Source: a virus
Length of the DNA: 64,000 nucleotides
Strand: one strand, 5' to 3'
IMG/VR virus record: IMGVR_UViG_3300021594_000641
Coordinates: 64,001-128,000 of that record
The position numbers and the translations under genes were made by a program. The notes under the pieces are model-generated. The model worked only from the letters and a program-made list of their open reading frames with translations. It had not been told where the DNA came from and did not search any database. This document shows positions 9,414 through 37,196 of the stretch, in pieces (the first letter of the stretch is position 1; each line of letters begins with the position of its first letter).

Positions 9414-10346
9414 TCAAGCGAAGTCGGCGCGGGCCAGAGAGTTGGTGTTGCCGATAGCGCCACCAATTGTCTCGTAAGCAAAGAACTCAAGCATGTAAGC
9501 CTTACGCTCGATGTACATTGTGGTGTCTTCGAGGACGTAGGACTTGCCCATGAACTTGGGATCAGCAAACAAGTACATTGAGTCGCTGGGGACCAAGTCT
9601 TGCTTGATGGTGATGATCCAGTTGGCGTTCATGAAGTTCTGCTCAGACCAGCCGTTCTTGAAGACGTCCTGGCTGAAGTCACCACCCATTTCTTCACGAC
9701 CAAACTTCATGATCTCGCGGATCGTGAGGTTGTTCAGAAGAACTGTGCCGGTTTCTAGGCGGCTGATGGTGCGGGGCAGAATCTTGAAAGCCTCTTGGAG
9801 GTTATCACGAGTGATACCGCCGTAGAGGGTTTCCCACTGAACAACGCCGGAGTTGGTGTTGGTGGCGTCGGCGGAGCCGCCCAAGCCAGCATCAACAGAG
9901 GCCAAGAACTTGCGGTCTTCTTCAGCCAGCATGTCCTTGATGGAGTTGTCAGAAAGAACCTGACGGATGTCGATGTAGTACGTCCGTAGTTCGTCAACGT
10001 CCTTGGTGAACCGAGGGGTGACGATACGATCGAAGCTAACGCGATAGCGCTGGCCGCGAATGTACAGGTTCATTGGTAGGGTGGCGAAGGGGATGCTGAT
10101 CGCGGCGGGGGAATCCGGCTCGCGGTCAACAATCTTCACGGGCTTGTCGGTATCAACCTGACGATCGAGATCGTCATTGCTGATCTGGACGGGTGGAAGG
10201 ATTCTGCGGTAGAAGCCTTCTTCACGCATCCTGTACCGGGTGAAGTCATTAACAGCGTCAAGTGCGCGCTTTTCCATGCCTGGGGTTTCCAGGTAGGACA
10301 TGAAGGTCTCGTTGCGCAGCTTGACATCTTCGCTAACTGATGCCAT
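9414..10346 (-). CDS. Major capsid protein (compact HK97 fold)
   Basis: 310 aa, AGGAG RBS, codon style of a highly expressed gene. Follows the scaffold/decoration genes; MREEGFYRRILPP...FDRIVTPRFTKDVDEL...AYETIGGAIGNTNSLARADF. Confidence 0.8.
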   Translation of the reverse strand: MASVSEDVKLRNETFMSYLETPGMEKRALDAVNDFTRYRMREEGFYRRILPPVQISNDDLDRQVDTDKPVKIVDREPDSPAAISIPFATLPMNLYIRGQRYRVSFDRIVTPRFTKDVDELRTYYIDIRQVLSDNSIKDMLAEEDRKFLASVDAGLGGSADATNTNSGVVQWETLYGGITRDNLQEAFKILPRTISRLETGTVLLNNLTIREIMKFGREEMGGDFSQDVFKNGWSEQNFMNANWIITIKQDLVPSDSMYLFADPKFMGKSYVLEDTTMYIERKAYMLEFFAYETIGGAIGNTNSLARADFA

Positions 10347-12779: not shown

Positions 12780-14258
12780 TCAAGATAGGTAATTGGAGCG
12801 TACGGCGTGCTCCTTATACCAACTGAAATTCGGTTCGCTCTTGAGCTCATTTAAGAAATATAGCTGGTAAGCAGCATAACGTCTAGCTAGTTGTTCGCTA
12901 TCGTCTGTAGCTGCTGTTTTAACCAGTTCAGAATTTCTAGCTCTAAAACTTGCTTGCTTAGTATTTCCAGACAAAACTTGCTTGAAAATACGCTTTTCAA
13001 ACAAATTAGGTCTTATCGACTTTGAAACTGCTACCTTGTGAGCCCATTGCTGAATCTTTTCGCTTGGGAAAGCCATAGACGGGTCACAAGTTCTTTCTTC
13101 CAAACACTGCTCAAAACTTGCAGAATCACTTATAAGTCTAGAAAAAACGCCTGGAAGCCTTGCTTCTACGTCTTTATAGGACGCAGACTTCAAAATTATG
13201 CTGTTTGAGTCTTTTCCTACCAGGTCTAGCCAGTCTTTTACGCTCAAAGCCACTTTTTCGCGGCTCAAAGCCCTCCAAATCTGCACTCCGGCCATTTTTC
13301 CCATAGGAACGTCGGTCAAAGCCGTTTTCTTATCGTCAAGAATGGTTGAGTCCTTCTGAGACACTCCAAACTTGCCGTTTTCTAGAGAACTTTCCATTTC
13401 TGCAAGTTCGTAGGCAAGTTTGAGCAAAGAAGCTGACCTTTCAGGCATATTTTCAAAACACAGCCTGAAAGGAGCTGTCACACCCATTTCTTCAGCTAAA
13501 AGAGCTCCTCCAGCCACTTGACTGGCGTTAGCCGCCTTCATGTGGCCAAAAACGTAAGCAATTCTGTCGGCGGGTCGATAAACGTCAGAAATATCAAACC
13601 AAGTAGGGTCAGGGTTGTCCACATGCAGTACATGACCATCAGCGGCCACTTTTGTCAGGTTGTTATAGCATCCGCCGTACTTACAGTTTCTTTCTGTGCA
13701 GTAAGTAGACCTGTTAGCGGCTTTGTTGCCACAACCGCTGCAAACGTCAAAAGGAACCCTACAAGCCATGGAAACGCCCCAGTCATTTGAACCGGAGGCT
13801 ATTTTTTGCATTTCCTTGTCAGCAACCAGGCCTTTGTTGCGGTCAGCTGCTTCTTTAGTGCCGTTAAGCGCTACAAGCAGCTCAATACGCTTCATCGCCT
13901 CGTTGAACGCCGACATTTTGATAATGCCATAACTTTTCGCTTCATCTTTATTTTGGTGGTTGCGGTACCACCTAGCGTGTTTGACGAACGTAGGATGGTA
14001 TTTGCGGCAAGTCGCAGACTTGAAACCGTCTCCGTTACGGTTTGGACCGTATGACTCCGTAGCTCCAATAGCAATAAGGTGAACGAGCTGCTCACCTGGC
14101 GCGACGTTGACATCGCGAAGTTTATCAGCGAATTCATGCCCAGCTCTTTTTATAAATGACTTAAGATCGTCGCCGCGAAGCCCGCGACTTGATTGCTTTA
14201 CCATCTCTACAGCTGGTACGCCAAAGTCTTGGGAGTCTGGAGAAGTTATCTTTATCAT
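12780..14258 (-). CDS. Prohead maturation serine protease with a Cys-rich insertion
   Basis: Candidate catalytic His (YRNHQN) and Ser (GVSMAC); CSGC..C...C..C insert; FDISDVYRPADRIA; upstream of scaffold and capsid genes. Confidence 0.65.
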   Translation of the reverse strand: MIKITSPDSQDFGVPAVEMVKQSSRGLRGDDLKSFIKRAGHEFADKLRDVNVAPGEQLVHLIAIGATESYGPNRNGDGFKSATCRKYHPTFVKHARWYRNHQNKDEAKSYGIIKMSAFNEAMKRIELLVALNGTKEAADRNKGLVADKEMQKIASGSNDWGVSMACRVPFDVCSGCGNKAANRSTYCTERNCKYGGCYNNLTKVAADGHVLHVDNPDPTWFDISDVYRPADRIAYVFGHMKAANASQVAGGALLAEEMGVTAPFRLCFENMPERSASLLKLAYELAEMESSLENGKFGVSQKDSTILDDKKTALTDVPMGKMAGVQIWRALSREKVALSVKDWLDLVGKDSNSIILKSASYKDVEARLPGVFSRLISDSASFEQCLEERTCDPSMAFPSEKIQQWAHKVAVSKSIRPNLFEKRIFKQVLSGNTKQASFRARNSELVKTAATDDSEQLARRYAAYQLYFLNELKSEPNFSWYKEHAVRSNYLS

Positions 14259-22015: not shown

Positions 22016-23506
22016 TTAAGAATGATGGCTTCCAACTTGTTTTAGGATTTCTCTGAACTTGTTGTTCAGGTCTTCCTTTTCTCTAGCTATTCCTTCTATT
22101 ATCTCATCGCCAGTTCTATATTTTTTAGCTCCAAGCATTTTAGAGAAGAAGCTGGGCTCTTCAGCCTGACTTATATACTTTTGTATAATAACGTCTTTCA
22201 GCTCTTCAGGTAAACCTACGTGAGAATCGAACCTTAGGCCTCTTCCTTTAGCCTGTTGAGTTCTCGACTCATGGAAGTGAGGGTCAAGTATTTGTATAAG
22301 ACTGGTGCCCTTGGTGCTTAAACCTTCTGCTCCAGCGGGACCAATCAATAAAGCTCTTAATTTACCAGCGTTGTAAGCATCTACGGCTTTCTTACGCTCT
22401 CTTTCCTTTACTCCTCCATGGAAAAACCCGTAAGGAATTTTCTCTTTGGCTAGAGCCGCAGCGTATGGGTCTAATCCTGCGCCTATATAGTTAGAGTATA
22501 TCAAAGCTTTTTTACGCTTATCTTCTTGTAGAACTTGTTTTAAGTTTTTTAAAGCTTCAGTCAACTTACCTGACTGCTGGAAAGACTTTATAAGATTCTT
22601 GTCTGCTCTAAACGGCGAAGTAGACAGACCTACTTGTCTAAGACCTGTCATGAAGCTGTTCAGCCTCTTTGACTCTTCTGCAGATAGGGGAAACTCTCTG
22701 TCTAGTTTCCATAAAAACTTAAGAGGAATCTTTTCCCTGATAGCGCTTTGAATTCTTTGCTGTTCTTGAGTTAGAGGAACTTTTATTAGCTGCTCGTTTA
22801 TGCTGACGCCTTCTGGAAGCTTTCCTGGCTGGTAATCAACTTTATTTTCAAGAAGCTTACGAAGTATGTGTTCGTTTCTTATTGTTTCTCTTTCGCCTGG
22901 CATGATGCCTCTAAGTTTGGCGAAGAAACCTGGGTCTACTCTTTTCTTTCGTATAAAAGCTTTGTTGAAATCTTCAGGATCTATCTTGAAACCGGTAAGC
23001 ATTGATAGCGGAGTAGCCAAATCAGATGGTTCGTTGACTATTGGAGACCCAGACAAGAGCATCAGCTGATTGGCTCTATTAGCGGCTCTGGCTATAGCCT
23101 CAGTTGCGGCTGAAGTTGGGCTTCTGAGCCTATGCGCTTCATCTACGATTATTGTTTTAGGAGGCTGTTTGAACTTTTTGCCTAAAGCCGCGCCTGTGTA
23201 AGAGAGTATTTCAGGCTCGCTACCGGTGGTGAATCTGTCTACTTCTTTCTGGAAGTTTTCTCTTAGGCTTGCTGGGGCTATTACGCCGTAATCGTCACCG
23301 AATTTCTTTTTGGCGGCTTCGGCTGCAAGTATTGAAGCTAAAGTTTTGCCGGTTCCTAAGCCGTGGTAGACCAACATCTTAGGACTTTTTGTAACTAATT
23401 TCTTAGCGACTCTAAGCTGATGAGCCTGAGGAATTACCTCAGGCTTCATCTCCGCGCTCTTCCCAATCTCTGAGAAGAGCGCTATTAGCTTGGAGTATTG
23501 ATTCAT
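22016..23506 (-). CDS. SNF2/SF2 helicase-like ATPase, D6/D11-like signature
   Basis: Motif I LVYHGLGTGKT, motif II IIVDEAHR, motif III LLSGSPIVN, motifs V-VI AGAEGLSTKG..ILDPHF..SRTQQAKGRGLRFDSH. Confidence 0.85.
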   Translation of the reverse strand: MNQYSKLIALFSEIGKSAEMKPEVIPQAHQLRVAKKLVTKSPKMLVYHGLGTGKTLASILAAEAAKKKFGDDYGVIAPASLRENFQKEVDRFTTGSEPEILSYTGAALGKKFKQPPKTIIVDEAHRLRSPTSAATEAIARAANRANQLMLLSGSPIVNEPSDLATPLSMLTGFKIDPEDFNKAFIRKKRVDPGFFAKLRGIMPGERETIRNEHILRKLLENKVDYQPGKLPEGVSINEQLIKVPLTQEQQRIQSAIREKIPLKFLWKLDREFPLSAEESKRLNSFMTGLRQVGLSTSPFRADKNLIKSFQQSGKLTEALKNLKQVLQEDKRKKALIYSNYIGAGLDPYAAALAKEKIPYGFFHGGVKERERKKAVDAYNAGKLRALLIGPAGAEGLSTKGTSLIQILDPHFHESRTQQAKGRGLRFDSHVGLPEELKDVIIQKYISQAEEPSFFSKMLGAKKYRTGDEIIEGIAREKEDLNNKFREILKQVGSHHS

Positions 23507-24495: not shown

Positions 24496-27006
24496 TTATG
24501 CTAGCTCTTCGTCAGCATCTTCCTTTTTCTTACGCCTATCTTCTTTTAACTTAGTTAAATAGTCATATAGCTTATATATACCGTAAGCACCGCCGCCAAG
24601 AGCGGCTGTTGCGCCCAAGCCTTGAACCCATGGAGCAACCTTGTGAGAAGTGGCAGTAATATTGCCAGGCTGCTCAAGAGCCTTGACTATACCCATGTAC
24701 AAAGGCCCGATTGTCGCAGGGTTAACCCCCTGGTGAGGCTGAGCAGCTGACATGGCGTGAGCAGCGGCAGCCGTTGTCGGATCTTTTGTCAGAGCTTCGT
24801 AAATAAGCTTGGATTGTTCCCTGTCTGGAGTTGGATGGGCTTTCTGTACATCCTGCACTATCTGATGCATCCTGCTCATGGTGTCCACGACGCCCTGACG
24901 CCCAGATCCGTATCCTAGAAGCCTTTGCATAGCTGCGTTTTGCTTTGAGGCGGCTTCTGGAGTAGCGGCTGACTGCGCAAAAGCCGATTCTATGTCTTGT
25001 CTTTCTGCATCCGAAAGACTGGCTTTGCGCTTGCTGATCAAATCAAACAGTTTTTCAGCTGTGGCTTTGCTCTGAAGCCTGTTGTACTTGGTATCTTTTG
25101 AGAAGAATCGCATGGGGTTGGCGTGAGCCAAGTATCCGCCGAGTGTAGCTTCTTCTTCTGGCTTGTCTGTGCTCTTTAGCTCTGCCTGCGGAGCTATGAT
25201 GCCGGTAAGTTCTTCAATCCAGTCTTTCTTGTACTTATCCTCAGGCGAAATATTCTTATCAAAGTCAGGCTGGGGATAAGTAGGCTTTCTATTCATGCCA
25301 GCTCGAGATTTAATCTCTACTGTGGCTATTCTTTTGATCAAGTCTTCAAGAGGGTTAACTCCTTCTACAGTTTGCTGCATAAAAGCTGAAGACGGGTCTT
25401 TAGCGTAATAGTTGTAGTGAGAATAATGCCCGCCTTCTGGCTGAGGAACTCCTTCTCTTGTCTCTAGCTTGGGCTGTCCGTGAGTTTGAACTCCCTGAGC
25501 GCGTAGAGCTTCAAGAATATTCTTTCTCTGAGTGTTCAGCTCTGCGCTGCCTGGCTTGTTTACATCTTTGAACAAAGGTTCAAGAAAAGCGGAGGCAGCT
25601 TCTGGAGTTATGCCCCTAGCCTTAGCTAGTTCTTGTACAGCAAAGTCTTTCTTTGTTTCTATATCCCGGAATCTTTCGTCAAAATCTCTTCTACCTAGAT
25701 AGTTGGTGCCAGGAATTCTCTCCCATTCACCTTTTGAGTTCTTTCTGTACTCTGATCCCTCTGTTCCTGGCCTTGGAGGAGGTCCTCCAACATTCATAAG
25801 CGGCCCAACCCAGTTTTCATTACGCGGGCTACGCATCCAGTTCATTATGTCTAAGGCTTTTGTGTTGCCATAAGCTATTGTCGGCAATAGGTTATTGGCT
25901 TCTCTGATATATGCAAGCTGGGCTGTAAGCTTGTCTGGTGCGCTGAACAAATCTTTTACAGCTTCTGATCCGGCTCCAAACCCTTTTGTTCTACCTGGGT
26001 TTAAATCCCTAAGTTTGAAATTAGGCATTACCTGTATGGCGTCTTGCTTAGCATCATGCTCTCTTTTCATTCTCTCTATGACAGCTTTCTCTTCTGGCGT
26101 AGCTCCGCCTCTTAGAGAGCTTGAAAGAATGCCAAACCATCCTGGTCTTTCATCTTTTGGTAGGTTTCCGCGCAACTCGGCTCTAGCAGAAGCCAAGTCT
26201 ATCTGATTCTGAACGTCCTCAAGGGTCAGATTCCCTAGTTGCCTGAGTTTCGTACCGCCGTATATTCCAGCGGCACCAGCACCACCTAGCAGGGCAGATC
26301 CCAGCAAACCGGCAGTCGGAAATGAGGCTGTCGAGGGTCTTTTCTTTTTTTTAGCGGTCCTGCTGGGTGATTGCCCAATGTCGAGGTACTCTTTACCTTC
26401 TGCATCTTCAAATTGAAGATTTTCTAGCTCTTCACGATTTGCCTGATTAGCCAACAAATCATTTGCTTCTGCATTAAGTTGCCAGTTTTCAAGCTCATTA
26501 AGTCTATTTTTATTTAAATCAGGCAGCTCCGCCTTTTTCTCTGACTCTCTAGTTACTTTCTTCCAGTTCTTTGCTGTTGGGTATCCTTTCTCTCCAGGCT
26601 TTGCTGGAGCTTCTCCACGCTCTTTCTTGGCGTGAATGTTTGCCCAGAGGCCTGGTTTTCCGCCTGCTTCTTTCTGATTTTCTGTCTCAGCTCGCTTACT
26701 AAGAGACTGTAGTATCTCGGCTAGTTTTTCATGAGCGCTGCCACACTTCCATTTACGAAGAGACTTGTTTATTCGGCTATCTGGGTCGTTTGCCGTAGCT
26801 TTTGAAGTTAGCTTGGACTTCATGCCTTTCATTCTGGCGCAGAAGCTATCTTTTCTTGGACCTCCTTCTGGCTGAGGCCTTTTTATGTCATGGCCTTGGG
26901 CTTTTAGGCTCTTACGGCCTTTCTCGTTCAGACCGCCTTCTGGGTTCTTGCCTTCAGAACGCTGCCAAGCTGGTGATGCGGACTTTTCTGTATCTTCAAG
27001 GCTCAT
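24496..27006 (-). CDS. Modular putative internal head protein with a DUF6321-like N-terminal module
   Basis: 836 aa; AWQRSEGKNPEGGLN...SFCARMKGM...DPDSRINKSLRKWKC, then GLWANIHAKK module; two Gly-rich hydrophobic helices. Confidence 0.65.
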   Translation of the reverse strand: MSLEDTEKSASPAWQRSEGKNPEGGLNEKGRKSLKAQGHDIKRPQPEGGPRKDSFCARMKGMKSKLTSKATANDPDSRINKSLRKWKCGSAHEKLAEILQSLSKRAETENQKEAGGKPGLWANIHAKKERGEAPAKPGEKGYPTAKNWKKVTRESEKKAELPDLNKNRLNELENWQLNAEANDLLANQANREELENLQFEDAEGKEYLDIGQSPSRTAKKKKRPSTASFPTAGLLGSALLGGAGAAGIYGGTKLRQLGNLTLEDVQNQIDLASARAELRGNLPKDERPGWFGILSSSLRGGATPEEKAVIERMKREHDAKQDAIQVMPNFKLRDLNPGRTKGFGAGSEAVKDLFSAPDKLTAQLAYIREANNLLPTIAYGNTKALDIMNWMRSPRNENWVGPLMNVGGPPPRPGTEGSEYRKNSKGEWERIPGTNYLGRRDFDERFRDIETKKDFAVQELAKARGITPEAASAFLEPLFKDVNKPGSAELNTQRKNILEALRAQGVQTHGQPKLETREGVPQPEGGHYSHYNYYAKDPSSAFMQQTVEGVNPLEDLIKRIATVEIKSRAGMNRKPTYPQPDFDKNISPEDKYKKDWIEELTGIIAPQAELKSTDKPEEEATLGGYLAHANPMRFFSKDTKYNRLQSKATAEKLFDLISKRKASLSDAERQDIESAFAQSAATPEAASKQNAAMQRLLGYGSGRQGVVDTMSRMHQIVQDVQKAHPTPDREQSKLIYEALTKDPTTAAAAHAMSAAQPHQGVNPATIGPLYMGIVKALEQPGNITATSHKVAPWVQGLGATAALGGGAYGIYKLYDYLTKLKEDRRKKKEDADEELA

Positions 27007-28907
27007 AGTACACCACCGTTATCAGTTGGCTTTATCACACCTTTTGGGTCGTATCCTTTTATCTTGCCTGTACTGCCAAAACCGACAGACTTAGCCAAAG
27101 AAGGCACGAACGAAGTACCAGTCTCGTCAGAGATAGCTCCACTCCACGTGCCCTTCAATAAACCCTTTTGAAGATTTGACCCAAGCATTCTTGTCATCCA
27201 GTCTGGATCATACTGCAGGTTATCCAAACCTCGCAAGAAGTGAGGCTCTATTGGAGGAGGCTCATGGTGAGCTATCACTTCATTAATTCCGAAATCAGAT
27301 AGTGTGTTTATAACTTTAGGAGTTACCCTGGTTCCTATCGTGTAGTGAAGGACAGGCCTTTCCAGGTACTTACCTTTTGCCGATTTTGTTGAAAGTTTCT
27401 GGTGTCCTGGCCTTGGCTGAAAAGTTTTCTCAAATAGATCGTAAGGAATAATGTCGTCAGGCATGAACTCTTCCAACTCGTCATTTAGCCTGACGTGGTT
27501 GATAAGCCCTCTAGATAGCATTTCAATATTTCTTCTATGCGCGCCCAGCCCAGCTTCTTTCATTGCGTCTCTAAAACTTAGAACAAACTGCCTTCTTCCT
27601 TCGCCTATTCCCTTGAACTTTACAAATTCAGCAGGGTTTGGAAGGCCGTCACTAAGCACATCTCCAGCTTCTACCTCATCTCCTATTTTGAACTTCATCC
27701 CGGCTTCTGGATTTATGTAGTGAGGAACTTGTTTGATAAATATGAACTGCCCGCCGCTAGGAGCTTCGCGAACAGATTCTATTTTTCCATCTACTTGAGC
27801 ATGAGTTGCCCAGTAAGGAGACTGCTTGGGACTTTGAATCAACTGATTTAGCTGCTTGAAGCCTGATATGGACTTACCGCCAGCAACTCCGCCGCTGTGT
27901 TTTGAGCTCAGGGTTCCTTGTGAGATTGGTTCGCTGAGTGCTTGCACCGCTGCAATGCCCACAAAGTCCCCAACAGCAGGTAAACCGCCACGCTCACGAA
28001 CTCCAACATCTCTTGCATACAAGCCTCCGTCAGGAGCTCCTGTGGCTACAGGACTTCTGACTACCATCTTGGTTATTCCACGGCTGAGAAGGTCTTTCAT
28101 GACCTTTGGAGTTATCAGCGTGTTTTTCTTATAGCCGCCTACTGGAACAGACAGAAGTGATCCTTCGTTGTCAGAATCGTCAACATCAACAGGCATTCCT
28201 CTGCTGTCCGTATGCCCAGGATCTTCAGCGTCTCTGGCTGTGACTATGAGCCTGTGCCCTAACTGGTTTAGCTGTTTGGAAAAGAACCCAGAGTGTTGAA
28301 CAGAGAACTTGGTATCAACAACTCCCTTTCTGGCTCCGAAGCTTCCAGCAAAATACTCTGCTGGAGTTAGGCCTTTGGAGAAAGAGTTCAAAACTGGAAT
28401 AGGAATAGGCCTGTCTCTGTGGTCTGTGTACAGTAAGTCTCCGCCTCTCAAAGACTTAAGGTTTGAAGGCTTGCCTCTTGAACCAGACAAAACCTGCAGA
28501 GCCAAAGGGCTGTGCTCAGCTTTGGACTCGTTAAGAATGGCGTCTTCTAGAGGCTTCTGATAACTAAGAACAGTTTTGACAATCTCGTCGTTCTTTTCTT
28601 TCTCTGGAAGGTTTCTTGCCTGTATGGCTTGTATTCTTTTCTTTATTTCTAAAGCAGCTTCCTTGCCTGATACTGACGTCCTTAGAGAATCAAGTCCGAA
28701 AGAGAATCCTCCGGTCTTGTAAGCTACATCTCTACCAACGTCAAATAACTTCTTAAGCACATCCCTGTAGCTGTCTGGATCCTTCTCAGCTATCTGCTGC
28801 ATCACTTTTTGAACAGTCTTACCGTCAAGAATACGATTATAGTCTCGATAGCTCTGAGGAAGAGCTTCGTTAACTAGCAGCTGACCTACAGTAGTTCTGA
28901 TAGACAT
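27003..28907 (-). CDS. rpoC: Multisubunit RNA polymerase, C-terminal half of beta-prime
   Basis: TTVGQLLVN; SGSRG; bridge helix SFSKGLTPAEYFAGSFGARKGVVDT..SGFFSKQL; trigger loop VGIAAVQALSEPISQGTLSSKHSGGV. Confidence 0.92.
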   Translation of the reverse strand: MSIRTTVGQLLVNEALPQSYRDYNRILDGKTVQKVMQQIAEKDPDSYRDVLKKLFDVGRDVAYKTGGFSFGLDSLRTSVSGKEAALEIKKRIQAIQARNLPEKEKNDEIVKTVLSYQKPLEDAILNESKAEHSPLALQVLSGSRGKPSNLKSLRGGDLLYTDHRDRPIPIPVLNSFSKGLTPAEYFAGSFGARKGVVDTKFSVQHSGFFSKQLNQLGHRLIVTARDAEDPGHTDSRGMPVDVDDSDNEGSLLSVPVGGYKKNTLITPKVMKDLLSRGITKMVVRSPVATGAPDGGLYARDVGVRERGGLPAVGDFVGIAAVQALSEPISQGTLSSKHSGGVAGGKSISGFKQLNQLIQSPKQSPYWATHAQVDGKIESVREAPSGGQFIFIKQVPHYINPEAGMKFKIGDEVEAGDVLSDGLPNPAEFVKFKGIGEGRRQFVLSFRDAMKEAGLGAHRRNIEMLSRGLINHVRLNDELEEFMPDDIIPYDLFEKTFQPRPGHQKLSTKSAKGKYLERPVLHYTIGTRVTPKVINTLSDFGINEVIAHHEPPPIEPHFLRGLDNLQYDPDWMTRMLGSNLQKGLLKGTWSGAISDETGTSFVPSLAKSVGFGSTGKIKGYDPKGVIKPTDNGGVL

Positions 28908-29131
28908 CAGATATTGATCTCTTGGACATCGACGTCTGATTTAATGCCAAGTTTAGAGAGAATAGAATCAAACAAACCATTATCGCCTTTCTTGGCCTTG
29001 TACAAAGTGATTGTCCCAGGAGCTAGCTCAAGAACAACGATAATAGGCTGGCCAAAGCTATCGCGAATGACCAGCCTAGTAGCTTCTGCTTCTCCTGAAG
29101 ATTGAAAACCGTTGTGATATTCCAGCTTCAA
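28907..29131 (-). CDS. Small hypothetical protein coupled to the beta-prime C-half gene
   Basis: 74 aa; TGATG overlap with the next start. Confidence 0.65.
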   Translation of the reverse strand: MKLEYHNGFQSSGEAEATRLVIRDSFGQPIIVVLELAPGTITLYKAKKGDNGLFDSILSKLGIKSDVDVQEINI

Positions 29132-29141
29132 AGCTTCCCCT

Positions 29142-29873
29142 TTATCGTTTGAATCCCATTGCGTTGATCAAGCAGCGAACAGCTTCGGTTTTGTCTTTCA
29201 AGCTTGCTTCCTTCTTTCCGCCGATTGGATCAATTGGCTTGATAGGAGGAATGCCGCCAACGCTGGCATCGCTTCCTTGTTCTTTTGAAGGAACAACCGG
29301 CTCTTGAGCGTCTTCGCCTTCTGGTGCGGGCTTATCGAGAATGTCGTAAGGAAGATTTAGGCCTAGGCTTTCGTACAGATTGATTAGCAACTTTTGTTGC
29401 CTTTCCATGTACTCAAGCATCTGCGCGGGATCTACCTTGCCGCCGCCTTTTGCCTTTGGCTTTGCTGCCCCGTCAGGAGAAGCTCCGCCGAGAGCTGCCT
29501 GCACGGCATCAGTAACCATTTTCTTTATGTCATCAGGAGAAGGGGCTGGAGGAGCGCCGCCCATAGCCGCTGGATCCATAGGCGGAGCACCGCCCATCAT
29601 AGCTGGGTCCATAGGAGGAGCTCCGCCGCCACCCATGGCAGCCATCATTGCTGGATCCATAGGAGGAGCACCGCCCATCATGGAAGGATCCATTGGTGGA
29701 GCGCCTGGAGGAGCAGCTCCCATCATGGCTGGGTCCATAGGAGGAGCTCCGCCGGCAGCGGCTTGGTCCATGGGAGGAGCGCCAGGAGGAGCGCCACCGC
29801 CAGGAGGAACAAAAGCGTTCTTCAGAGCCATAGCCCTTTTGACTTCTTGTAGCAAAATTGGATTGATAGGCAT
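29142..29873 (-). CDS. Pro/Met/Gly repeat low-complexity protein
   Basis: Start MPINPIL (GGAG RBS) removes the overlap given in the track; tandem GGAPPMDPAMM-type repeats. Confidence 0.7.
   Translation of the reverse strand: MPINPILLQEVKRAMALKNAFVPPGGGAPPGAPPMDQAAAGGAPPMDPAMMGAAPPGAPPMDPSMMGGAPPMDPAMMAAMGGGGAPPMDPAMMGGAPPMDPAAMGGAPPAPSPDDIKKMVTDAVQAALGGASPDGAAKPKAKGGGKVDPAQMLEYMERQQKLLINLYESLGLNLPYDILDKPAPEGEDAQEPVVPSKEQGSDASVGGIPPIKPIDPIGGKKEASLKDKTEAVRCLINAMGFKR
29533..29812 (-). repeat. Degenerate coding tandem repeat (GGAPPMDP[A/S]MM)
   Basis: About seven APPMD/APPA units with synonymous codon variation. Confidence 0.85.
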
Positions 29874-29892
29874 TGATAGCTCCGTATTTAAA

Positions 29893-30858
29893 TTATCTAG
29901 CTCCCGCGCCGATCGGCCCAGAATGACCTTTTTCAAACTTATCAAGAAAATGACTCATAGCCCAGTTGTATTCGTCGCTAGACAAAGGCCGTCCGTACAT
30001 TTGATTGAATACTTGCCGAGCTGGAGCCATAGGAACTCTGTTAGCGTAAGTCCTATTCCTTGGATCAGGAGCGCTGACGCCAGCATAGAAGTTAGGAATC
30101 ATAAAATCGTTATCTTTGTCCTGAAACTTGTCAGGCATCTTAGAGTTTTTAAGCGCAGAAGATTCAAACATCTGCCTATGAGGGTGATAGCTCAAAGAAG
30201 CCCCGTAGCTGCCTTCAGGAAAGGGCTGAGGCTCAAGAGTTGTGCCTCCGGCATTGACCGTAAGCATCTGAGACAAGTTCTTATTTGAGCTAGGAGCTCT
30301 TCTGCTCTGGCTAAGCATAGCCTTGTTGTTTGCTGAAGCCATCTCCTGAGGGCTCATGGTTGGAGGAACCATGTTTGGAACGCCTCTATTGCCTGCAGGG
30401 GCTACAGCCGAAGGAGGACGGCTTGGAGTGGTTACAGGCCTACTGGGCGTTGGAGCAGATATAGCTCCAGGAAGACTAGCTGGACTTACAGCTGGGCTAG
30501 GCGCTGCTGGAGTCATTCCTGGAACTGTGGGAGATACTGACCCAGGAAGGGCAGATGGAGTAACTGGAGGAGTAGGAGCTGGAAGGCTGCTACTCCTCAG
30601 ATGGTTTTGCAAAGAAGCCAAGGCGTCTTGGTTCATCCTGGCCATATGTGCCACTTCTGCGTCTTGCCTAGCCCTGTGCGCGGTAGCACTGGATTGGGCA
30701 TTTCTAAGATGGCCAGCTATGGTGTTACCAGACACGTCGGTTAGAGGAGCCGTTGACGGAGTTGCCGGAGTGGCTGGAGTTCCTGAGTCTTGAGCCGCTT
30801 TAATCATGTGTTTGGCTAAAGCGGCCTTAACCATAATCAACTTAAATGTGTCAATCAC
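29893..30858 (-). CDS. Pro/Ala/Ser/Thr-rich putative internal head protein
   Basis: 321 aa, GTG start; leader MVKAALAKHMIKAAQ. Confidence 0.65.
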   Translation of the reverse strand: MIDTFKLIMVKAALAKHMIKAAQDSGTPATPATPSTAPLTDVSGNTIAGHLRNAQSSATAHRARQDAEVAHMARMNQDALASLQNHLRSSSLPAPTPPVTPSALPGSVSPTVPGMTPAAPSPAVSPASLPGAISAPTPSRPVTTPSRPPSAVAPAGNRGVPNMVPPTMSPQEMASANNKAMLSQSRRAPSSNKNLSQMLTVNAGGTTLEPQPFPEGSYGASLSYHPHRQMFESSALKNSKMPDKFQDKDNDFMIPNFYAGVSAPDPRNRTYANRVPMAPARQVFNQMYGRPLSSDEYNWAMSHFLDKFEKGHSGPIGAGAR

Positions 30859-30881
30859 GGCTTCTCCTTGTTCTTATAAAC

Positions 30882-31640
30882 TTATTTGTTTCTAGCTACG
30901 CCTGGCATGTCTACGTTTAGCTTCGATGGAGACGTGCTAAAAGGAGTTTGAACTGGAGGGAAGACAGAGGATGGTCTAGAGGATGCTATGTTTCTCTGCC
31001 CTTGCGCAGCCCTGCCTTGCTGATAGTTGGCGTATTCATTTGGCATTATACTTCTGCCACCTGCAGCCACGCCCACAGGATTTTGAAAAGCCTCTGGGTC
31101 AATCAAAGCTGTTCCCATTCGGTCTAGCATGGGAGAACCGCTATTCTGCCCCAAAGAAGCTAAGTAGCCTAGAGGACTGGAGCTAGCGTGTTCCACGTGC
31201 TTCTTTATGGTCGCAGCGTTATCTATTGCTGACCTTCCAAAGTTAGCTGCGCCAGAAGCCGCGTTAGCCAGATAGCTTCCAGCATCTCTCATGCTGTTTC
31301 TTACATTCTCAGACCTAGTTAAGTCGTCTAGAGCTCTGGCCGTAGCGTAATCCGGAGCAGCCATGCTGGCTCCGGGTTTTAGACCTGTTACAAGCTGCCC
31401 TCTTCCTAGAGCCTGCTGTCTACGATTGGCTTGAATAGCCAAGTCGGCAGAAGTAGGACCAGAAGTAGGAGGCACTCTAGAAGAAGCTATAGCCTTGTCT
31501 ACAGAAGTAGGAGCGGGCTTAGGCGCATTAACGCTAGCAGGGTTAGGTCCTTCTGGAGGAAAAACAGGAGGAGCGGCCTGTTTAATTAACTTAGCCGCTG
31601 CCTCTTTTACCTGCTGAATAGCCTTGTAGTTGAAAGCCAT
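30882..31640 (-). CDS. Putative internal head protein, MAFNYKAI leader family
   Basis: 252 aa; MAFNYKAIQQVKEAAAKLIKQAA. Confidence 0.7.
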   Translation of the reverse strand: MAFNYKAIQQVKEAAAKLIKQAAPPVFPPEGPNPASVNAPKPAPTSVDKAIASSRVPPTSGPTSADLAIQANRRQQALGRGQLVTGLKPGASMAAPDYATARALDDLTRSENVRNSMRDAGSYLANAASGAANFGRSAIDNAATIKKHVEHASSSPLGYLASLGQNSGSPMLDRMGTALIDPEAFQNPVGVAAGGRSIMPNEYANYQQGRAAQGQRNIASSRPSSVFPPVQTPFSTSPSKLNVDMPGVARNK

Positions 31641-31682
31641 CTTAGTATCCTCAGGGTTAGAGCTTTAAAAACTACTAAAAAA

Positions 31683-32120
31683 TTACTTAGATAACCTAGC
31701 TTTAGGTAATCCGTACAACTCATCTTCTATATTTTTTGGCATGGGCAGCGCGAAATTGCTAGTTGGAACCGAATAAACTCCTCTTGGCTGGTAGTGCATG
31801 GCTCTGCGAGCCATGTCCAGGGTAGTAGGCGATGTTAGCATGTTCTCTACTTGAGCTCTATCTTTACCTATGGACACCGCGTCTTCTTTTTTCCCAGACT
31901 CCAAAGCTTTAATTTGCTTTTCTAAAAGTCTCTTAGCGAAGTCTTTTTGAATATCAATAAAGTTACTCATACCCTGGTCATTTGGATAATTTCTAGCGGC
32001 AAGACCGGCGTCTCCTGGAGCTCCTAGAGTAGATTTAAGTTTTACTGCTTCATTTTTATCTGCAGATAATTTAACTGCAGCTTTTTTAACTTGTTCAATA
32101 GCCTTGTAGTTGAAAGCCAT
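31683..32120 (-). CDS. Putative internal head protein, MAFNYKAI leader family
   Basis: 145 aa; MAFNYKAIEQVKKAAVKLSA. Confidence 0.7.
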   Translation of the reverse strand: MAFNYKAIEQVKKAAVKLSADKNEAVKLKSTLGAPGDAGLAARNYPNDQGMSNFIDIQKDFAKRLLEKQIKALESGKKEDAVSIGKDRAQVENMLTSPTTLDMARRAMHYQPRGVYSVPTSNFALPMPKNIEDELYGLPKARLSK

Positions 32121-32243
32121 CTTAGTATTCCTAACTTTAAAACTGCGTTGGCTACGGAAGTAAAACGTATCTAGAAGTATAAACTGCTTTATAGCTTACA
32201 GCAATCAGCCTTTTACTAACAATTTTTACCTTGGCTTTTACCA

Positions 32244-32714
32244 TTAATACCCGTAGTTAACTTTACCTGTGCCAAGACTTGGCAAACCTACGCCTTTTAG
32301 AAAAGCTTGCCTATGCAAATTGTTGAATGGAGTTTTTGACAATTCTGTCGGTAACGTTTGATAAGTAGGGTATGGAACAATTTGACGATAGTTTTCTGAT
32401 CCAGGCATGGAGTATTGATACGGGTTTACGGGTTTATTTAGCGCCTCTGTACTGGCTGCGTGTCGCGTTTCTGGAAGATTTCTAGAGCCTTCCAACATTT
32501 TTTGTTTTCTTTCTGTTTCAGAAAGCCACTTTATGCCAGGCTCAGGCGCTTTTTGATAAGTAGGAAGACCTATAGCGTCTCCTCCGTAACCTGGAGGAAT
32601 AATTTGCGGTTTAGTCGCACTGCTGGCAGTAGGTTTTAAAGTAGCCGCAGATTCAGCAGCCCTTTTTGCCAGAGCTTCTTTAACCATTGAAATAGCTTTG
32701 TAATTAAAAGGCAT
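32244..32714 (-). CDS. Putative internal head protein, MPFNYKAI leader family
   Basis: 156 aa; MPFNYKAISMVKEALAKRAA. Confidence 0.7.
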   Translation of the reverse strand: MPFNYKAISMVKEALAKRAAESAATLKPTASSATKPQIIPPGYGGDAIGLPTYQKAPEPGIKWLSETERKQKMLEGSRNLPETRHAASTEALNKPVNPYQYSMPGSENYRQIVPYPTYQTLPTELSKTPFNNLHRQAFLKGVGLPSLGTGKVNYGY

Positions 32715-32719
32715 GGCTT

Positions 32720-32763
32720 CACCCTAGTTTACACCCTAGTTTTCACCCTAGTTTTCACCCTAG
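32720..32763. repeat. 12-bp tandem repeat, about 3.7 copies (CACCCTAGTTT[T/A])
   Basis: Units start at 32720, 32732, 32744 and 32756; spans the RNAP stop and the RBS of the next gene. Confidence 0.9.
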
Positions 32764-35700
32764 CTGTTTAGAATTACCACTTTCTGATCAGGCCCAATTT
32801 CTCCTGACTTATAAGCCCTGATTGCGTCGGCTTTTGTGGCAAAATACCGTTCTGGTTTATTAGACACGAAGGCCGTTGCCTGATAAAGACCGCCTTGATA
32901 CTCGTTCTTTGGCAGCTGGTGAACTTTAAACGTTTTAGTTGATAGCAAATTCTTGCTAGGCAACATCTTTTCAAGAGCGTCTTTGACAGCTCCATCAGAC
33001 ACAGGAACGTGGTAGTTCATGGTGTCGCCATCAAAGTCGGCACCAAATCCCGTAACCACAGCTGGGCATAACTGCATTGTTTCGTTGTCTACAAGTATTG
33101 GCTTGAAGGCCATAACGCCATACCTGTGAAGAACTGGAGCTCTGTTGATAATCACAGGCCTGTCGTTCATCTCTTGCTGCATAGCTGTCAGAGCTAACTT
33201 GTCTTTGTTCTGCACAAGTTCTGCTGCCCTAATCGGAGAAACTCCTTGTCTGGCCAGTCTTCTTACAATAAATGGTTTATATATTTCCCAAGCTTTGTTG
33301 ATAGGAATGCCTACTTGATCTAAATCCAGATTGGCGTTTGGAGAGATAACGCCTCTGCCAACAACGTCTACTGTCGTGCTTAGCAACTTGCGCTGCATAA
33401 CAGAGAACTTAGGATTATCGCCAAACACGTATTTGAGAACGCCTTTGACTCCGCGCTCTTGGTTCTTGGGACTTATTGGATCACCAAGTCCCGTGACTGC
33501 TTTGAATGACCTATATAGAGCTAAGCGCTCATCTCCAACTTCGTTGGATATTCTTCTGGTTTCTTTCAAAGCCTGGTTAGCTTCAAAAGCTTCCTTATAC
33601 AGGTAATTAGGATCAGCCACCAAAGGTCTGTCGCCAGATCCCATAACAGCCACAGGGCGGAATATTGGTGGAAGGACTGGAATCTTGTCCATCATCCAAT
33701 CTTTTGGATGCATCTTCAGCCTTTGGGTGTGTTTCAGAATCGCCCAGCGCTTTAGAGCTGCATCTTTCGATGACTTCTTCGAGTTTCTCCATTCTGTTTC
33801 TGCTCTCTTTGTTGCCTCGTTGATGTCAATTCTTTCCAAAGACTTCTTTATAGCCTCTGGACCGGACATTTCATTGAACGTCTCTTTTCCAGAAAGTATG
33901 GCGTTGAACCTGTTTTGAGTCAGGCCGAGTATTCTGCGAATAGGCTCTTCCATGACAGGATTGGGCAAAGGCTCAGCTAACTTTATGTAGCTCCATCTAT
34001 TTCCTCCATGTCCTCCTGTTGTTGATTCGTCAAACAATCCTCCCTTTATGGGCTTCAAGCCTTCCTTCCAGTCCACAGTTTCAGGAGAAGTTATTTCCCT
34101 TCCTGCAGCTAATTGGTCTATATCCTTGTTGGTCAAGGCCATGATCTGAATTCTTGGCCCAGTTCTTATTGGGTTTATGCCTGCAGACCTGAGTTGTTCA
34201 AAGAACTTATGGTATACGAGAGGAATTCTTGGCTCAGGAGGAGTTCTACCGGACATGAATGCTGCCCAGTAGTCTTGATTTTTTTGTCCTCTAATAGCTC
34301 CGGCATCGGTAAGAACATCCAAAGCTCCATGGGAAAGAAGGGCGTTGTTGTCAGCAAGGCTTACGCGCTTGCTTCCCATTGGACCGCCTTTAGCTGGAGA
34401 TTCCTCAGAGGTGTAAGAACCCAAACCACGACCAGAGCCTTTGCTCTCAGCCATGTGGTGCAACTTCATGAAGAAGCGATTTCCTGTGAATACGTCCCTT
34501 ATTTTTGTGCTGTCTATTGGATCCAGTATGTCTTCCCTGTCAGACATGTTGTGCTTGGATAGTTCTTTTTTGGCGAACTCTATCATGTCTTCTATGTCAG
34601 AAAAGTCTTTTACGGCGTATCTCTTACCGTGCTTTTCAGCTATTTTTCCCAGAACCGCTTCTACCATCTGACCAGGATTTGTTCTGGAAATAATGCCCAA
34701 GGGGTTTACCAGAACCTCAAAAGGTCTTCCGTCGCTATCTACAGGCATGTGGTTGTCTGGAACTATCTCAGAAATTACTCCCTTGTCTCCATACCTTCCA
34801 GAAAGCTTGTCGCCAACCTGCATTTGGGAGTAGCTCTTTACTGTTACGACTACGCCTTTCCTGGTTTTCTCTACGTCTGTAACCACTCCTTTGTCGTGAT
34901 GATCCCAAGTTACAGTGCTGTCTGAAAAAGTAGGAGCCTTGCCTCTGGTTATTTGATTGTGCGCCAGCTCTTTCTGCTTAACCTGAAGAATAAGAGGAGT
35001 ATCGGCATTTACTATTGAGCCCTTCTTGATTACTCCGTCCTCATCCATGTTGTCCAGGATGGCTTTGTCGTAAGTGCCTGGGAACATGGATATAAAAGTT
35101 TTCTTTCCGTATTTGGCGTTATCCTCAAACTCCACGTCGTTTTGATACATGTGTTCTGAGGAAAGACGCTTGGCAGCTGCCTCAGATATAACTATGGCGT
35201 CTTCAAAGTTCTGACCTTTATAGGGAATGTAGGCAGTACGCATGTTCAGACCCAAAGCCGTAGCGCCTTTGGCGTCTGTAAAGTTAGACCTGGCAATAAG
35301 AGTATTCTTCTTTACCATGTCTCCAGGCATAACTACAGGCGTGTTATGAAGATAAGTCTTTCTGTTGTAAGGAAGGTTGTCATGTATTTCTTTAACATGC
35401 ACCTTGCCATCAGATCCCTTTATGTGAATCTCTTCTGGAGTAACCTTAACAACTTGTCCTTCTACGTCGGAATGTACCGCGCCCATGTACTTGCCGTATC
35501 TTTCCTCATACGACTCGTCATCAGGACCTGGAACACCTGACTGAACAAACGGGGATTCGGCGTTTGCAATAGGCAAAGCCTGTGTAAGCATTCTCGCGCC
35601 CATCATCACGCGCTGGCCTTTGATGGTGGATTTGAGAGGAATCATGTTTACCAGAGGATTGAACGAGTCTTCCATGTGTGGAAGAACGTATTCAACCTGG

Positions 35701-37196
35701 TTCTTTGGAACATATTTGATTTTGCCGCTAACCAAAGCAGCCACTACGTTTGAATTCTTGTTTTCAAGCTCTTTGGGGAAAGCTATTACAGAGTCAGCAA
35801 TATCCTGAGGAGTTTTCCATACAGGTTTATTTCCATTCTTTACGTCAAGAAACTTGGCATAGACCTTTCCATCCTTACCTTTCATGGAAGATTGAGCCAA
35901 ACGGCTATCAACACCTACCTTTAGAGATTCAGGAGTGAGTAGAGGATCGACATAACCAAAGTGAGAAGGCTGAACCGACCTGGCTTCGTCTGGAACAGCG
36001 TCCAGAGAAGGAATACCGCCTTCGCCAAGACGACTCATTCTGGTCAGCTGGCCAAGAATCTCAGCGTTGTTCACTTCTTCAGAAGGCTGTCCAAGTCCAG
36101 AACTTGTAATTGCAGCATTCAAATGCTTGCCAAGGAAGTTAGTTCCCAGAGGACTGAGATTATTTTTGAATGTGGCTTTCCACAGTAAAGGCCTCATGAC
36201 CTTGTAGGCTGAGCGCATCTTCTCAGAAAACAGATCCTCAGGACCCATGATCATCTGATAGGCCATGGCATCGCGGTCGTCTGGATCTGCTTCTCTCTTG
36301 TTTATGGCCACGATCTTCTTTGTGGCATCAATAATGGCATCTACTGACAAGTTTTTATACGGTTTGCCTAGTGTTCTTGACGTTACAACACCATCTAAAT
36401 GCATGTTCTCAAAGAAGTTACGAAGCTTTTGATACTTGCTTTCCTTGTCTCCTTCCTGATCAGCCTTCCTAAGAGTTCTTTGGATTAGCTTTTCCAGAAC
36501 CTGCGGGTCGTTTTGCCTGGCGTTTACTTCGTACAGCTCGTTTCCCCAAGAGTCTCTAAGCTGTTTGTCTGTTGCACCCATGGCTTTGAGCAGGGGAAAC
36601 AGAGGCATGGACGCTTGGCCCATGGAAACTTTGAATACGCCGCGAGCTGGATCTAGAGAATATCTGTGAGAAACACCTTTACCAGGAAGTACGTTAACGT
36701 GAGATTCTATTTCACCGTTCTGCTTTTCTCTCGTATATATCCCTGGGCGCAATCTGGCTTGGTTGGCAAGTGTGTATTCAACACCATTAAGTACGAAAGT
36801 GCCGCCATTTGTCATCTTGGGAATACGAGCCATGGTTATGGCTTTTTCATCAACGATGTTTCCCTGCGTGTCCTGAAGCTGCCATATGCCCTGAAGCCTT
36901 CTTTCAAGGCTTTCTTTTCTAAGAATGGCTTTCTTTCGTTCTTTTATGGAAGGAACTGGGCTATCTAGATAGCTAGCGCTGACTAGCTTTAGCTTATACC
37001 TATTGTTTTCAAATACAGGAATTTCTTTCGTAGCGTTTAAAACACCGTCGTATATGGAGTTACGAGTCTTATCTATGTCAGAAAAAGACCGCATCTCTTC
37101 CTGAGGTTTATTTAAAATAGGCGCGGCCAGATTGCCAAGAACTCCTGCAGGCTTGTTTGGTCCCGCAGGAGTTCCACCGTCTAGGACAGAAGCCAT
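32760..37196 (-). CDS. rpoBC: Multisubunit RNA polymerase: beta fused to the N-terminal catalytic half of beta-prime
   Basis: Beta motifs: IPKMTNGGTFVLNG, SHFGYVDPLLTPES, RVMMGARMLTQALP, GQNFEDAIVIS, GDKLSGRYGDKGVI, NPLGIISRTNPGQ, RFFMKLHH. Beta-prime motifs: IPVLPPIFRP, RKLLSTTVDVVGRGVI, NRAPVLHR, GADFDGD. Confidence 0.95.
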   Translation of the reverse strand: MASVLDGGTPAGPNKPAGVLGNLAAPILNKPQEEMRSFSDIDKTRNSIYDGVLNATKEIPVFENNRYKLKLVSASYLDSPVPSIKERKKAILRKESLERRLQGIWQLQDTQGNIVDEKAITMARIPKMTNGGTFVLNGVEYTLANQARLRPGIYTREKQNGEIESHVNVLPGKGVSHRYSLDPARGVFKVSMGQASMPLFPLLKAMGATDKQLRDSWGNELYEVNARQNDPQVLEKLIQRTLRKADQEGDKESKYQKLRNFFENMHLDGVVTSRTLGKPYKNLSVDAIIDATKKIVAINKREADPDDRDAMAYQMIMGPEDLFSEKMRSAYKVMRPLLWKATFKNNLSPLGTNFLGKHLNAAITSSGLGQPSEEVNNAEILGQLTRMSRLGEGGIPSLDAVPDEARSVQPSHFGYVDPLLTPESLKVGVDSRLAQSSMKGKDGKVYAKFLDVKNGNKPVWKTPQDIADSVIAFPKELENKNSNVVAALVSGKIKYVPKNQVEYVLPHMEDSFNPLVNMIPLKSTIKGQRVMMGARMLTQALPIANAESPFVQSGVPGPDDESYEERYGKYMGAVHSDVEGQVVKVTPEEIHIKGSDGKVHVKEIHDNLPYNRKTYLHNTPVVMPGDMVKKNTLIARSNFTDAKGATALGLNMRTAYIPYKGQNFEDAIVISEAAAKRLSSEHMYQNDVEFEDNAKYGKKTFISMFPGTYDKAILDNMDEDGVIKKGSIVNADTPLILQVKQKELAHNQITRGKAPTFSDSTVTWDHHDKGVVTDVEKTRKGVVVTVKSYSQMQVGDKLSGRYGDKGVISEIVPDNHMPVDSDGRPFEVLVNPLGIISRTNPGQMVEAVLGKIAEKHGKRYAVKDFSDIEDMIEFAKKELSKHNMSDREDILDPIDSTKIRDVFTGNRFFMKLHHMAESKGSGRGLGSYTSEESPAKGGPMGSKRVSLADNNALLSHGALDVLTDAGAIRGQKNQDYWAAFMSGRTPPEPRIPLVYHKFFEQLRSAGINPIRTGPRIQIMALTNKDIDQLAAGREITSPETVDWKEGLKPIKGGLFDESTTGGHGGNRWSYIKLAEPLPNPVMEEPIRRILGLTQNRFNAILSGKETFNEMSGPEAIKKSLERIDINEATKRAETEWRNSKKSSKDAALKRWAILKHTQRLKMHPKDWMMDKIPVLPPIFRPVAVMGSGDRPLVADPNYLYKEAFEANQALKETRRISNEVGDERLALYRSFKAVTGLGDPISPKNQERGVKGVLKYVFGDNPKFSVMQRKLLSTTVDVVGRGVISPNANLDLDQVGIPINKAWEIYKPFIVRRLARQGVSPIRAAELVQNKDKLALTAMQQEMNDRPVIINRAPVLHRYGVMAFKPILVDNETMQLCPAVVTGFGADFDGDTMNYHVPVSDGAVKDALEKMLPSKNLLSTKTFKVHQLPKNEYQGGLYQATAFVSNKPERYFATKADAIRAYKSGEIGPDQKVVILNS

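Follow-up and report, generated by a model that had tools for sequence, protein, structure and literature searches.

The window analysed here, a stretch of 64,000 nucleotides (positions 64001-128000 of the 189,675-bp virus record IMGVR_UViG_3300021594_000641, recovered from freshwater metagenomes and with an estimated completeness of 91%), encodes the two large chains of a multisubunit RNA polymerase (RNAP) whose subunit boundaries have moved: chain A joins beta to the N-terminal half of beta-prime, and chain B is the rest of beta-prime. The locus raises the question of what kind of enzyme these chains form, that is, whether the plan is peculiar to this phage or belongs to a family, in which order fusion and split arose, which other subunits take part and whether the enzyme travels in the virus particle.

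Architecture of the two chains

Pfam, NCBIfam, alignment and a structure model agreed that one open reading frame (ORF) of 1478 amino acids (aa) runs from beta into the beta-prime N-half with both active-site barrels, as had been proposed from the DNA letters. Chain A matched the Pfam families Rpb2_3 (residues 373-437), Rpb2_6 (582-929), Rpb1_1 (1123-1214) and Rpb1_2 (1338-1409), and in a PDB sequence search it resembled bacterial beta up to approximately residue 1008 and beta-prime from approximately residue 1015. It holds both double-psi barrels and the clamp helices, has the N-terminal zinc-binding domain of beta-prime deleted and contains a single cysteine. On the NCBIfam rpoC profile, chain A covered positions 156-534 and chain B began at 548, so that the two pieces abut without overlap. 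Alignment to Salmonella RpoB/RpoC, in which the long lineage-specific inserts were missing from both chains, placed the break between approximately residues 561 and 572 in Escherichia coli numbering.

The boundary between the beta and beta-prime parts corresponds to residues 1013-1014 (window approximately 34160-34155), and the junction aligned gap-free across the split and single-chain relatives described below. In an AlphaFold model of residues 443-1478 (predicted local distance difference test [pLDDT], 88.8; predicted template modelling score, 0.77), the junction was a hairpin. The first 572-575 residues of the model superposed on bacterial and plastid beta, and comparison with Bacillus subtilis beta gave a Z of 36.3 and a root mean square deviation of 3.8 for 541 aligned residues. 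In bacterial RNAP the last beta strand and the first beta-prime strand run side by side, and E. coli enzymes engineered by Severinov and colleagues in 1996-97, with fusions and with cyanobacteria-like splits, were reportedly active; thus, neither change should harm catalysis.

The catalytic residues were retained. The beta barrel carries the lysines K797 and K805, and the three aspartates of the DxDGD barrel (Table 1) were invariant in 72 homologs. Also conserved in chain A were R529, E665, D666, R838 and H914 of beta and R1352 of beta-prime. In terms of the Salmonella subunits, the core catalytic set comprised R678, E813, D814, K1065, K1073, R1106 and H1237 of RpoB and R425, D460/462/464, R731, Q929 and H936 of RpoC, all kept in the phage chains. 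The asparagine that precedes the motif (N458) was replaced by glycine in chain A, as in 66 of 120 close homologs. Two positions of the rifampicin pocket also deviate, with glutamate in place of D516 and glutamine in place of H526, and the enzyme would be expected to resist the drug.

For its part, chain B contains the bridge helix (residues 182-217) and a trigger loop with Q330, L333 and the histidine H337. It matched Rpb1_5 in Pfam and, in the PDB search, beta-prime from its third residue onwards. Its model (pLDDT 80) had the normal shape of a beta-prime C-half and matched bacterial beta-prime in Foldseek (E ~1e-25). The second zinc site is lost, all four of its cysteines being gone, and no cysteine is present anywhere in the chain. 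The C-half gene lies 3853 bp from that of chain A, in accordance with the predicted 3.9 kb and six intervening genes (ORFs of 74-321 aa), to which one further called ORF of 30 aa has to be added. The intervening ORFs probably encode inner-head proteins; because the gap varies from 0.85 to 8.4 kb in relatives, they are not part of the enzyme plan.

Table 1. Positions of the RNAP genes and associated features (window coordinates unless given for the genome)
Feature	Position	Strand	Description
Chain A	32760..37196	-	1478 aa; compact bacterial-type beta (1-1012) joined to beta-prime N-half (1015-1478)
Fusion junction	34137..34178	-	Last beta strand 1007-1012, Gly-Pro turn, first beta-prime strand 1015-1020; hairpin by DSSP of the model
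Catalytic DFDGD	33024..33038	-	Starts at residue 1387; D1387, D1389 and D1391 = E. coli D460/462/464
Small ORFs between RNAP genes	28907..32714	-	Six to seven; low-complexity, cysteine-free
Chain B	27003..28907	-	634 aa; C-half of beta-prime, beginning with the TTxG motif; contains funnel, bridge helix, trigger loop and jaw
SNF2/SF2 helicase	22016..23506	-	No cysteine; ortholog of Arash gp217, E 1e-73
Prohead protease	12780..14258	-	Probable; PHROG 18299, E 0.003; ortholog of Arash gp222
Major capsid protein	9414..10346	-	Same family in Arash, Vibrio D69 and single-chain phages
Sigma-70-type gene	genome C1:53572-54441 (= L009:17573-18442)	-	289 aa; ~10 kb left of the window, among baseplate genes

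An assembly artefact, such as a chimera near position 34170, or decayed host genes could in principle produce an unusual plan, and both are refuted for this locus. The identical chain A was indexed in 78 blocks, with assemblies of NCBI, JGI, Logan and ENA; contigs of two runs, both of which may be sources of the window DNA, spanned the junction without any difference; and the GC content at third codon positions was 0.44 on one side of the junction and 0.45 on the other. Moreover, homologs with the same plan number in the hundreds and include those of four cultured phages, and the catalytic residues are invariant. A GTDB scan yielded no clue to the host of the phage.

Relatives sharing the layout

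The plan had been thought a lone, independent rearrangement; instead, it is the inherited state of a large clade, next to a sister clade of fully fused enzymes. Among the best 120 listed homologs of each chain, all 120 had the same plan. A profile scan of IMG/VR returned at least 526 related stretches, and the 78 IMG/VR loci examined comprised 68 split, 7 single-chain and 3 unclassified ones. The split chain A always ended at profile positions 1464-1471, that is, within eight positions.

The cultured phages with this plan are Salmonella phage Arash (OQ632216) and Vibrio D69, D148 and D181. In Arash, gp206 (1525 aa) and gp216 (606 aa) are accompanied by sigma gp10 and helicase gp217, reproducing the plan of the window (PMC10585845). 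The paper labels the two genes beta and beta-prime; the shifted boundary goes unmentioned and the enzyme was not tested (PMC10585845). These four phages share with the window genome the fusion, the split point and the capsid, portal, terminase, sheath, protease, helicase and sigma families; Arash and D69 differ from it in keeping the second zinc site and in having one further sigma each. The Arash chains were 30% and 26% identical to chains A and B, respectively. Beta and the beta-prime N-half in one ORF, a break before TTxG and a C-half of about 600 aa are found in the window as in the Arash-type phages, and the window, Arash and D69 fell in one clade (Shimodaira-Hasegawa-like approximate likelihood ratio test [SH-aLRT], 100 in the denser tree described below; 92/90 in the tree with mReC, a lineage of phage RNAPs, and bacteria).

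A motif scan for the catalytic loop detected many phage ORFs of approximately 2000-2200 aa, longer where they contain inteins, that hold the whole of beta and beta-prime. These unsplit, single-chain RNAPs (for example G003, G024 and G028), from uncultured phages of 150-210 kb in IMG/VR, were 30-35% identical to the RNAP of the window. They have the same junction, the same deletion of the first zinc domain and the same capsid and sigma families; unlike the window RNAP, most keep exactly four cysteines, those of the second zinc site. Compared with Salmonella, chain A was three times closer to the single-chain ORFs, and they bridge the split point by a short, natural-looking loop. BFVD gave no full-length match among the matches shown, which is uninformative either way.

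Several variants were observed among the relatives. L054, considered as an unfused relative, and G034, considered as a second split, were both TGA-recoded single chains of 2019 aa. In the single-chain relatives G021 (L159) and G034 (L166), TGA is a sense codon, and the RNAP opens to that length under translation table 4. The RNAP of G033 (L171:991-6264, L172:1729-4422) and G035 (L173) is interrupted immediately behind DFDGD by an apparent split intein of atypical form, with an N-piece of 26-28 aa; the G033 halves lie 55 kb apart on opposite strands, with an apparent C-piece ending in aspartate, and in G016 a contiguous intein occupies this site. The C-half is joined to a NUDIX domain (PF00293) in P0181 and P0217, chain B homologs of approximately 920 aa, and inteins or extensions bring further C-halves to 1000-1450 aa. 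A stand-alone beta-prime C-half of 507 aa, annotated as hypothetical, is encoded by the unrelated, smaller Acinetobacter phage Ab1-TPeters (CDS0037; L018:11896-13419); it begins near the same point, so the break site recurs.

Order of fusion and split

RNAP trees were built under LG+G4, and the supports cited are those from IQ-TREE, since FastTree supports may be shifted by re-rooting. GN1 was left out of the tree of the family with mReC and bacteria and of the denser tree, the giant-virus row out of the denser tree and the zinc/cysteine tree, and the P rows with chain A only out of the trees. The RNAP family formed one clade (100/100) apart from bacteria and mReC. The denser tree showed two sister clades, one of split enzymes (SH-aLRT 100) and one of single chains (93).

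Fusion followed by split would be the simplest history, an order that rests on parsimony and is not proven: because all outgroups have an intact beta-prime, it requires two events and the reverse three. In this history, beta and beta-prime would have become a single chain in an ancestor that also lost the first zinc domain; in the lineage of the window, Arash and Vibrio D69, a break in a surface loop before TTxG would then have made the C-half a chain of its own; and the subclade of the window would later have lost the second zinc site, which was kept in most single-chain members and in early-branching split members, including Arash, and is missing from that subclade.

Alternatively, the split plan could be ancestral, the single chains having arisen by re-fusion of the C-half, or the split could have happened twice. 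The sister relationship of the two clades is compatible with this, and G033, unbroken at the split point, grouped with Arash and D69 (99/97), in or beside the split clade. With sparse taxa, the approximately unbiased (AU) test rejected a single split clade (p=0.012), whereas with denser sampling it was not rejected (p=0.50). The three events needed and the short loop that naturally joins the ends in single-chain relatives argue further against an ancestral split, and we regard these alternatives as rather unlikely compared with fusion followed by split.

Comparison with other RNAPs

Membership in mReC, which the original prediction had raised as a possibility, was rejected: a grouping of the split clade with mReC gave an AU p of 3e-5, and all listed mReC enzymes have separate subunits, with a beta of 900-1563 aa and a beta-prime of 887-1391 aa (PMC7481178). 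The survey that defined them selected proteins of at least 800 aa with a NADxDGD filter (Weinheimer and Aylward 2020, PMC7481178), whereas the RNAP of the window has chains of 1478 and 634 aa with a shifted boundary, and its motif reads GADFDGD and lies in the beta-containing chain. In a comparison covering one listed mReC contig (G001; L076) plus similar loci, these formed a clade of their own (100/100). The capsid protein of the window matched PHROG 2522 and had no match in the partial G001; the mReC capsid family is PF07068/VOG11186. Both kinds of enzyme are phage-encoded and alignable to cellular beta/beta-prime, but mReC enzymes often occur as two sets per genome, go with a T4-like, apparently different capsid family, are cysteine-rich and branch separately. 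With a giant-virus root, mReC and the family of the window grouped against bacteria (98/97, under LG+G4 with one long outgroup), and a deeper kinship of the two may tentatively be considered.

Like the RNAP of the window, those of phiKZ and AR9 have no alpha or omega and a beta-prime split after the barrel, and one of them is packaged for early genes, as proposed here (PMC7598289). They differ in that beta is split too (into two or three of the 4-5 chains), in having two enzymes per phage with no recognisable sigma-70 gene and in being far more divergent, the PHROG matches of the window being partial. In the window beta is whole and fused, and a single RNAP set was found in the 91% complete genome.

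Full fusion of beta and beta-prime is known in Helicobacter and Wolbachia, and an RpoC1/RpoC2 split in cyanobacteria and plastids. The Helicobacter/Wolbachia fusion has the same beta-end/beta-prime-start junction as chain A, and cyanobacterial beta-double-prime begins approximately 12-16 residues later than chain B. However, these bacterial variants made one change each and kept alpha, omega and both zinc sites, unlike the window RNAP, whose chains scored far below bacterial family cut-offs and did not branch with bacteria. As for single chains, gp66 of the crAss-like phage phi14:2 and the P23-45 enzyme are reported to be packaged, highly divergent two-barrel virion RNAPs; both barrels would lie in one chain, as in chain A. 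N4 and DEV polymerases are cysteine-free and packaged, but the N4 virion RNAP is of the T7 fold, unlike the enzyme of the window. No chains of the crAss, P23-45 or N4 type were among the PDB sequence matches shown, all of which were bacterial subunits.

The predicted split just before TTxG was borne out, but the contrast that had been drawn with cyanobacteria is small, the site lying near the cyanobacterial and phiKZ ones. A split after the beta-prime barrel is a known hot spot, common to phiKZ/AR9 and cyanobacteria (PMC7598289). Moraphage, considered as a possible description of the family, is a separate group without RNAP. In the literature searched, including reviews and with subscription journals largely missing, no description was found of the combined fusion and split, of single-chain beta-beta-prime RNAPs as a sister clade or of an alpha-less core with sigma-70. 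Many phage RNAPs with this plan exist, then, and none was found described; each single change has a cellular precedent, and the combination is apparently undescribed.

Sigma and alpha

The claim that no alpha, omega or sigma gene is recognisable held for alpha and omega in the whole genome (91% complete), which also lacks a second RNAP set, and for sigma within the window; it did not hold for sigma in the genome, where a sigma-70-type gene is located to the left of the window. The gene was present in 7 of 7 near-complete genomes of the family and not in mReC-like genomes, contrary to a minimal two-chain enzyme without sigma. Its product was 32% identical to the particle sigma of Arash, gp10 (E 3e-16), of which it is the ortholog. 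Searches of the genome with Pfam Sigma70_r2 and Sigma70_r4 were blank and the gene was detected solely via gp10, but Sigma70_r3 scored above the cut-off, and the region 2-4 pattern was conserved in 8 orthologs; SigBFG, FliA and RpoD profiles matched weakly, below cut-off. Orthologs of Arash gp196 or of the D69 sigma were not found in the genome, and a scan for sigma-70 promoters gave fewer sites (8) than shuffled sequence (20).

Co-folding of sigma with residues 990-1478 of chain A gave a score of 0.77, compared with 0.01 for the best control (the mark used is reached by 58 of 80 solved and by 2 of 110 mismatched pairs). At least 60% of the contacts were common to the runs, the partner pLDDT was 74 or higher, and the best predicted contacts were between the clamp helices (1190-1226) and sigma residues 63-102, the canonical site. 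The prediction supports binding of the phage sigma to the clamp helices, although the score may reflect likeness to solved holoenzymes.

Since no phage alpha is present and the enzyme is nearer bacterial RNAP in sequence and fold than the phiKZ enzymes are, the two chains might need host alpha (and omega), giving a hybrid enzyme. We consider this quite improbable: the hosts of the orthologs are distant from one another and the orthologs themselves share 30% identity, the phiKZ/AR9 enzymes work without alpha (PMC7598289), and the fusion would tie together the parts that alpha normally brings together.

Probable packaging in the particle

Packaging, which had been proposed from the location among head genes, is made likely, if indirectly, by Arash particles and by a family-wide loss of cysteines, and on these grounds we judge it probable for the window RNAP. 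In Arash particles, gp206 yielded 3516 spectra, the most of any protein, gp216 1210, helicase gp217 1148 and sigma gp10 467, with 1333 for capsid and 877 for portal, while sigma gp196 was not detected (PMC10585845). Per residue, by our own arithmetic, these values amount to 2.3, 2.0, 2.4 and 2.0, respectively, against 1.5 for portal, which fits equal amounts of the chains, helicase and sigma. The gp217 gene follows that of the Arash C-half and its protein is abundant in particles; the helicase of the window is, by analogy, a candidate co-packaged partner.

Chains A and B together contain 1 cysteine in 2112 residues (P=5e-11 versus the genome mean), and 97 of 106 intein-free homologs contain none; the gene block around the two chains is similarly poor in cysteine. 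Most relatives keep only four zinc ligands as cysteines, compared with 16-35 cysteines in mReC or bacterial enzymes. The ejected polymerases of N4/DEV (Schitoviridae) are likewise without cysteine, a loss ascribed to passage through the periplasm (PMC11445570).

The same enzyme might instead remain unpackaged, be made after infection from genes that the host transcribes and serve middle/late (structural) transcription, its presence in Arash particles being carry-over. The Arash list does include enzymes unlikely to be structural, its authors raise carry-over, and there is one RNAP set; the position among late head genes fits either possibility. However, carry-over sits poorly with gp206 as the top protein and with near-equal amounts per residue of the chains, helicase and gp10 when gp196 is absent, and cysteine loss throughout the family is not seen in mReC or bacterial enzymes. 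An unpackaged enzyme thus appears improbable, and packaging remains the preferred explanation.

Proposed mechanism

With this packaging and the history given above, we consider it probable that chains A and B are the alpha-less core of the only RNAP of the phage. The covalent link between beta and the beta-prime N-half would hold both barrels together and stand in for the alpha assembly platform. Chain B would dock onto chain A, supplying the bridge helix and trigger loop, and promoters would be recognised by the phage sigma bound to the clamp helices. The core would be packaged in the head together with sigma and helicase; all three would leave it on ejection, probably in an unfolded state, and fold again in the cytoplasm to begin transcribing the phage genes. 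Ejection in an unfolded state would explain why cysteines and, in the end, the two zinc sites were lost. Newly made enzyme would probably also transcribe later genes, since there is no second RNAP.

Several points weigh against this model. The phage of the window is known from its genes, and its packaging is argued largely by analogy with Arash, whose chains have low identity to those of the window. The Arash particles were prepared on one sucrose gradient and yielded 116 proteins, some of them metabolic enzymes, and the authors allow for carry-over (PMC10585845). The enzyme may use host alpha, and additional subunits or another sigma could be encoded in the tenth of the genome that is missing. 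Finally, with split and single-chain clades as sisters, the tree alone does not fix the order of events. A bolder version, which we put forward as a serious but tentative possibility, is that of a widespread, undescribed, injected holoenzyme, alpha-less, zinc-free and cysteine-free, made of two chains, sigma-70 and an SNF2 helicase, which would refold unaided and run the whole infection; it would derive from a single-chain enzyme in an old lineage apart from bacteria and mReC, with Arash as its culturable model.

Open questions for jumbo-phage RNAPs include assembly without alpha, passage through the tail and refolding (PMC7598289). The family described here is the simplest case: its core consists of one or two chains, still well alignable with bacterial RpoB/RpoC, its sigma-70 is recognisable, and one member, Arash, is cultured on a laboratory strain of Salmonella. 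In its natural variants the enzyme is unbroken, broken once or joined across the break by an intein, and it has either one zinc site or none. The IMG/VR stretches add a large alignable branch to RNAP phylogeny that the length and motif filters of the mReC survey would have dropped, and an orthogonal polymerase encoded by two or three genes could find use as a tool.

Neighbouring genes

Cysteine accounts for 7 of the 6317 residues encoded by the 16 genes of window positions 21477-42085, compared with 1.9% in replication genes. Glycine-rich hydrophobic stretches occur in many of the products of this block, which are candidates for ejected inner-head and membrane-crossing proteins. Similar cysteine-free giants are encoded at C1:57612-61247 and C1:145303-149337. 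In the minus-strand head module (window 8948-42085), the motif K-x-A-[A/S] was enriched 4-5 times (41 in 10,384 aa versus 38 in 45,444; p=3e-11). It occurs in scaffold-like and inner proteins, in the protease itself and once each in chains A and B, and is a candidate prohead-protease cleavage site.

Among the small ORFs between the RNAP genes, a 32-bp direct repeat (window 31617-31648 and 32097-32128) covers the beginning of a 252-aa and of a 145-aa gene, and contigs break there; both genes share an N-terminal leader with a 156-aa gene. Four tandem copies of an 11-12-bp unit (window 32718-32762) separate the chain A stop from the start of the 156-aa gene. The sole long plus-strand gene in the window (42228-45611) encodes a class II ribonucleotide reductase with an ATP cone and an intein that retains a LAGLIDADG remnant. 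Outside the window, at C1:171160-174354 (L014:1161-4355), a family A DNA polymerase is fused to a family-4 uracil-DNA glycosylase-like domain.

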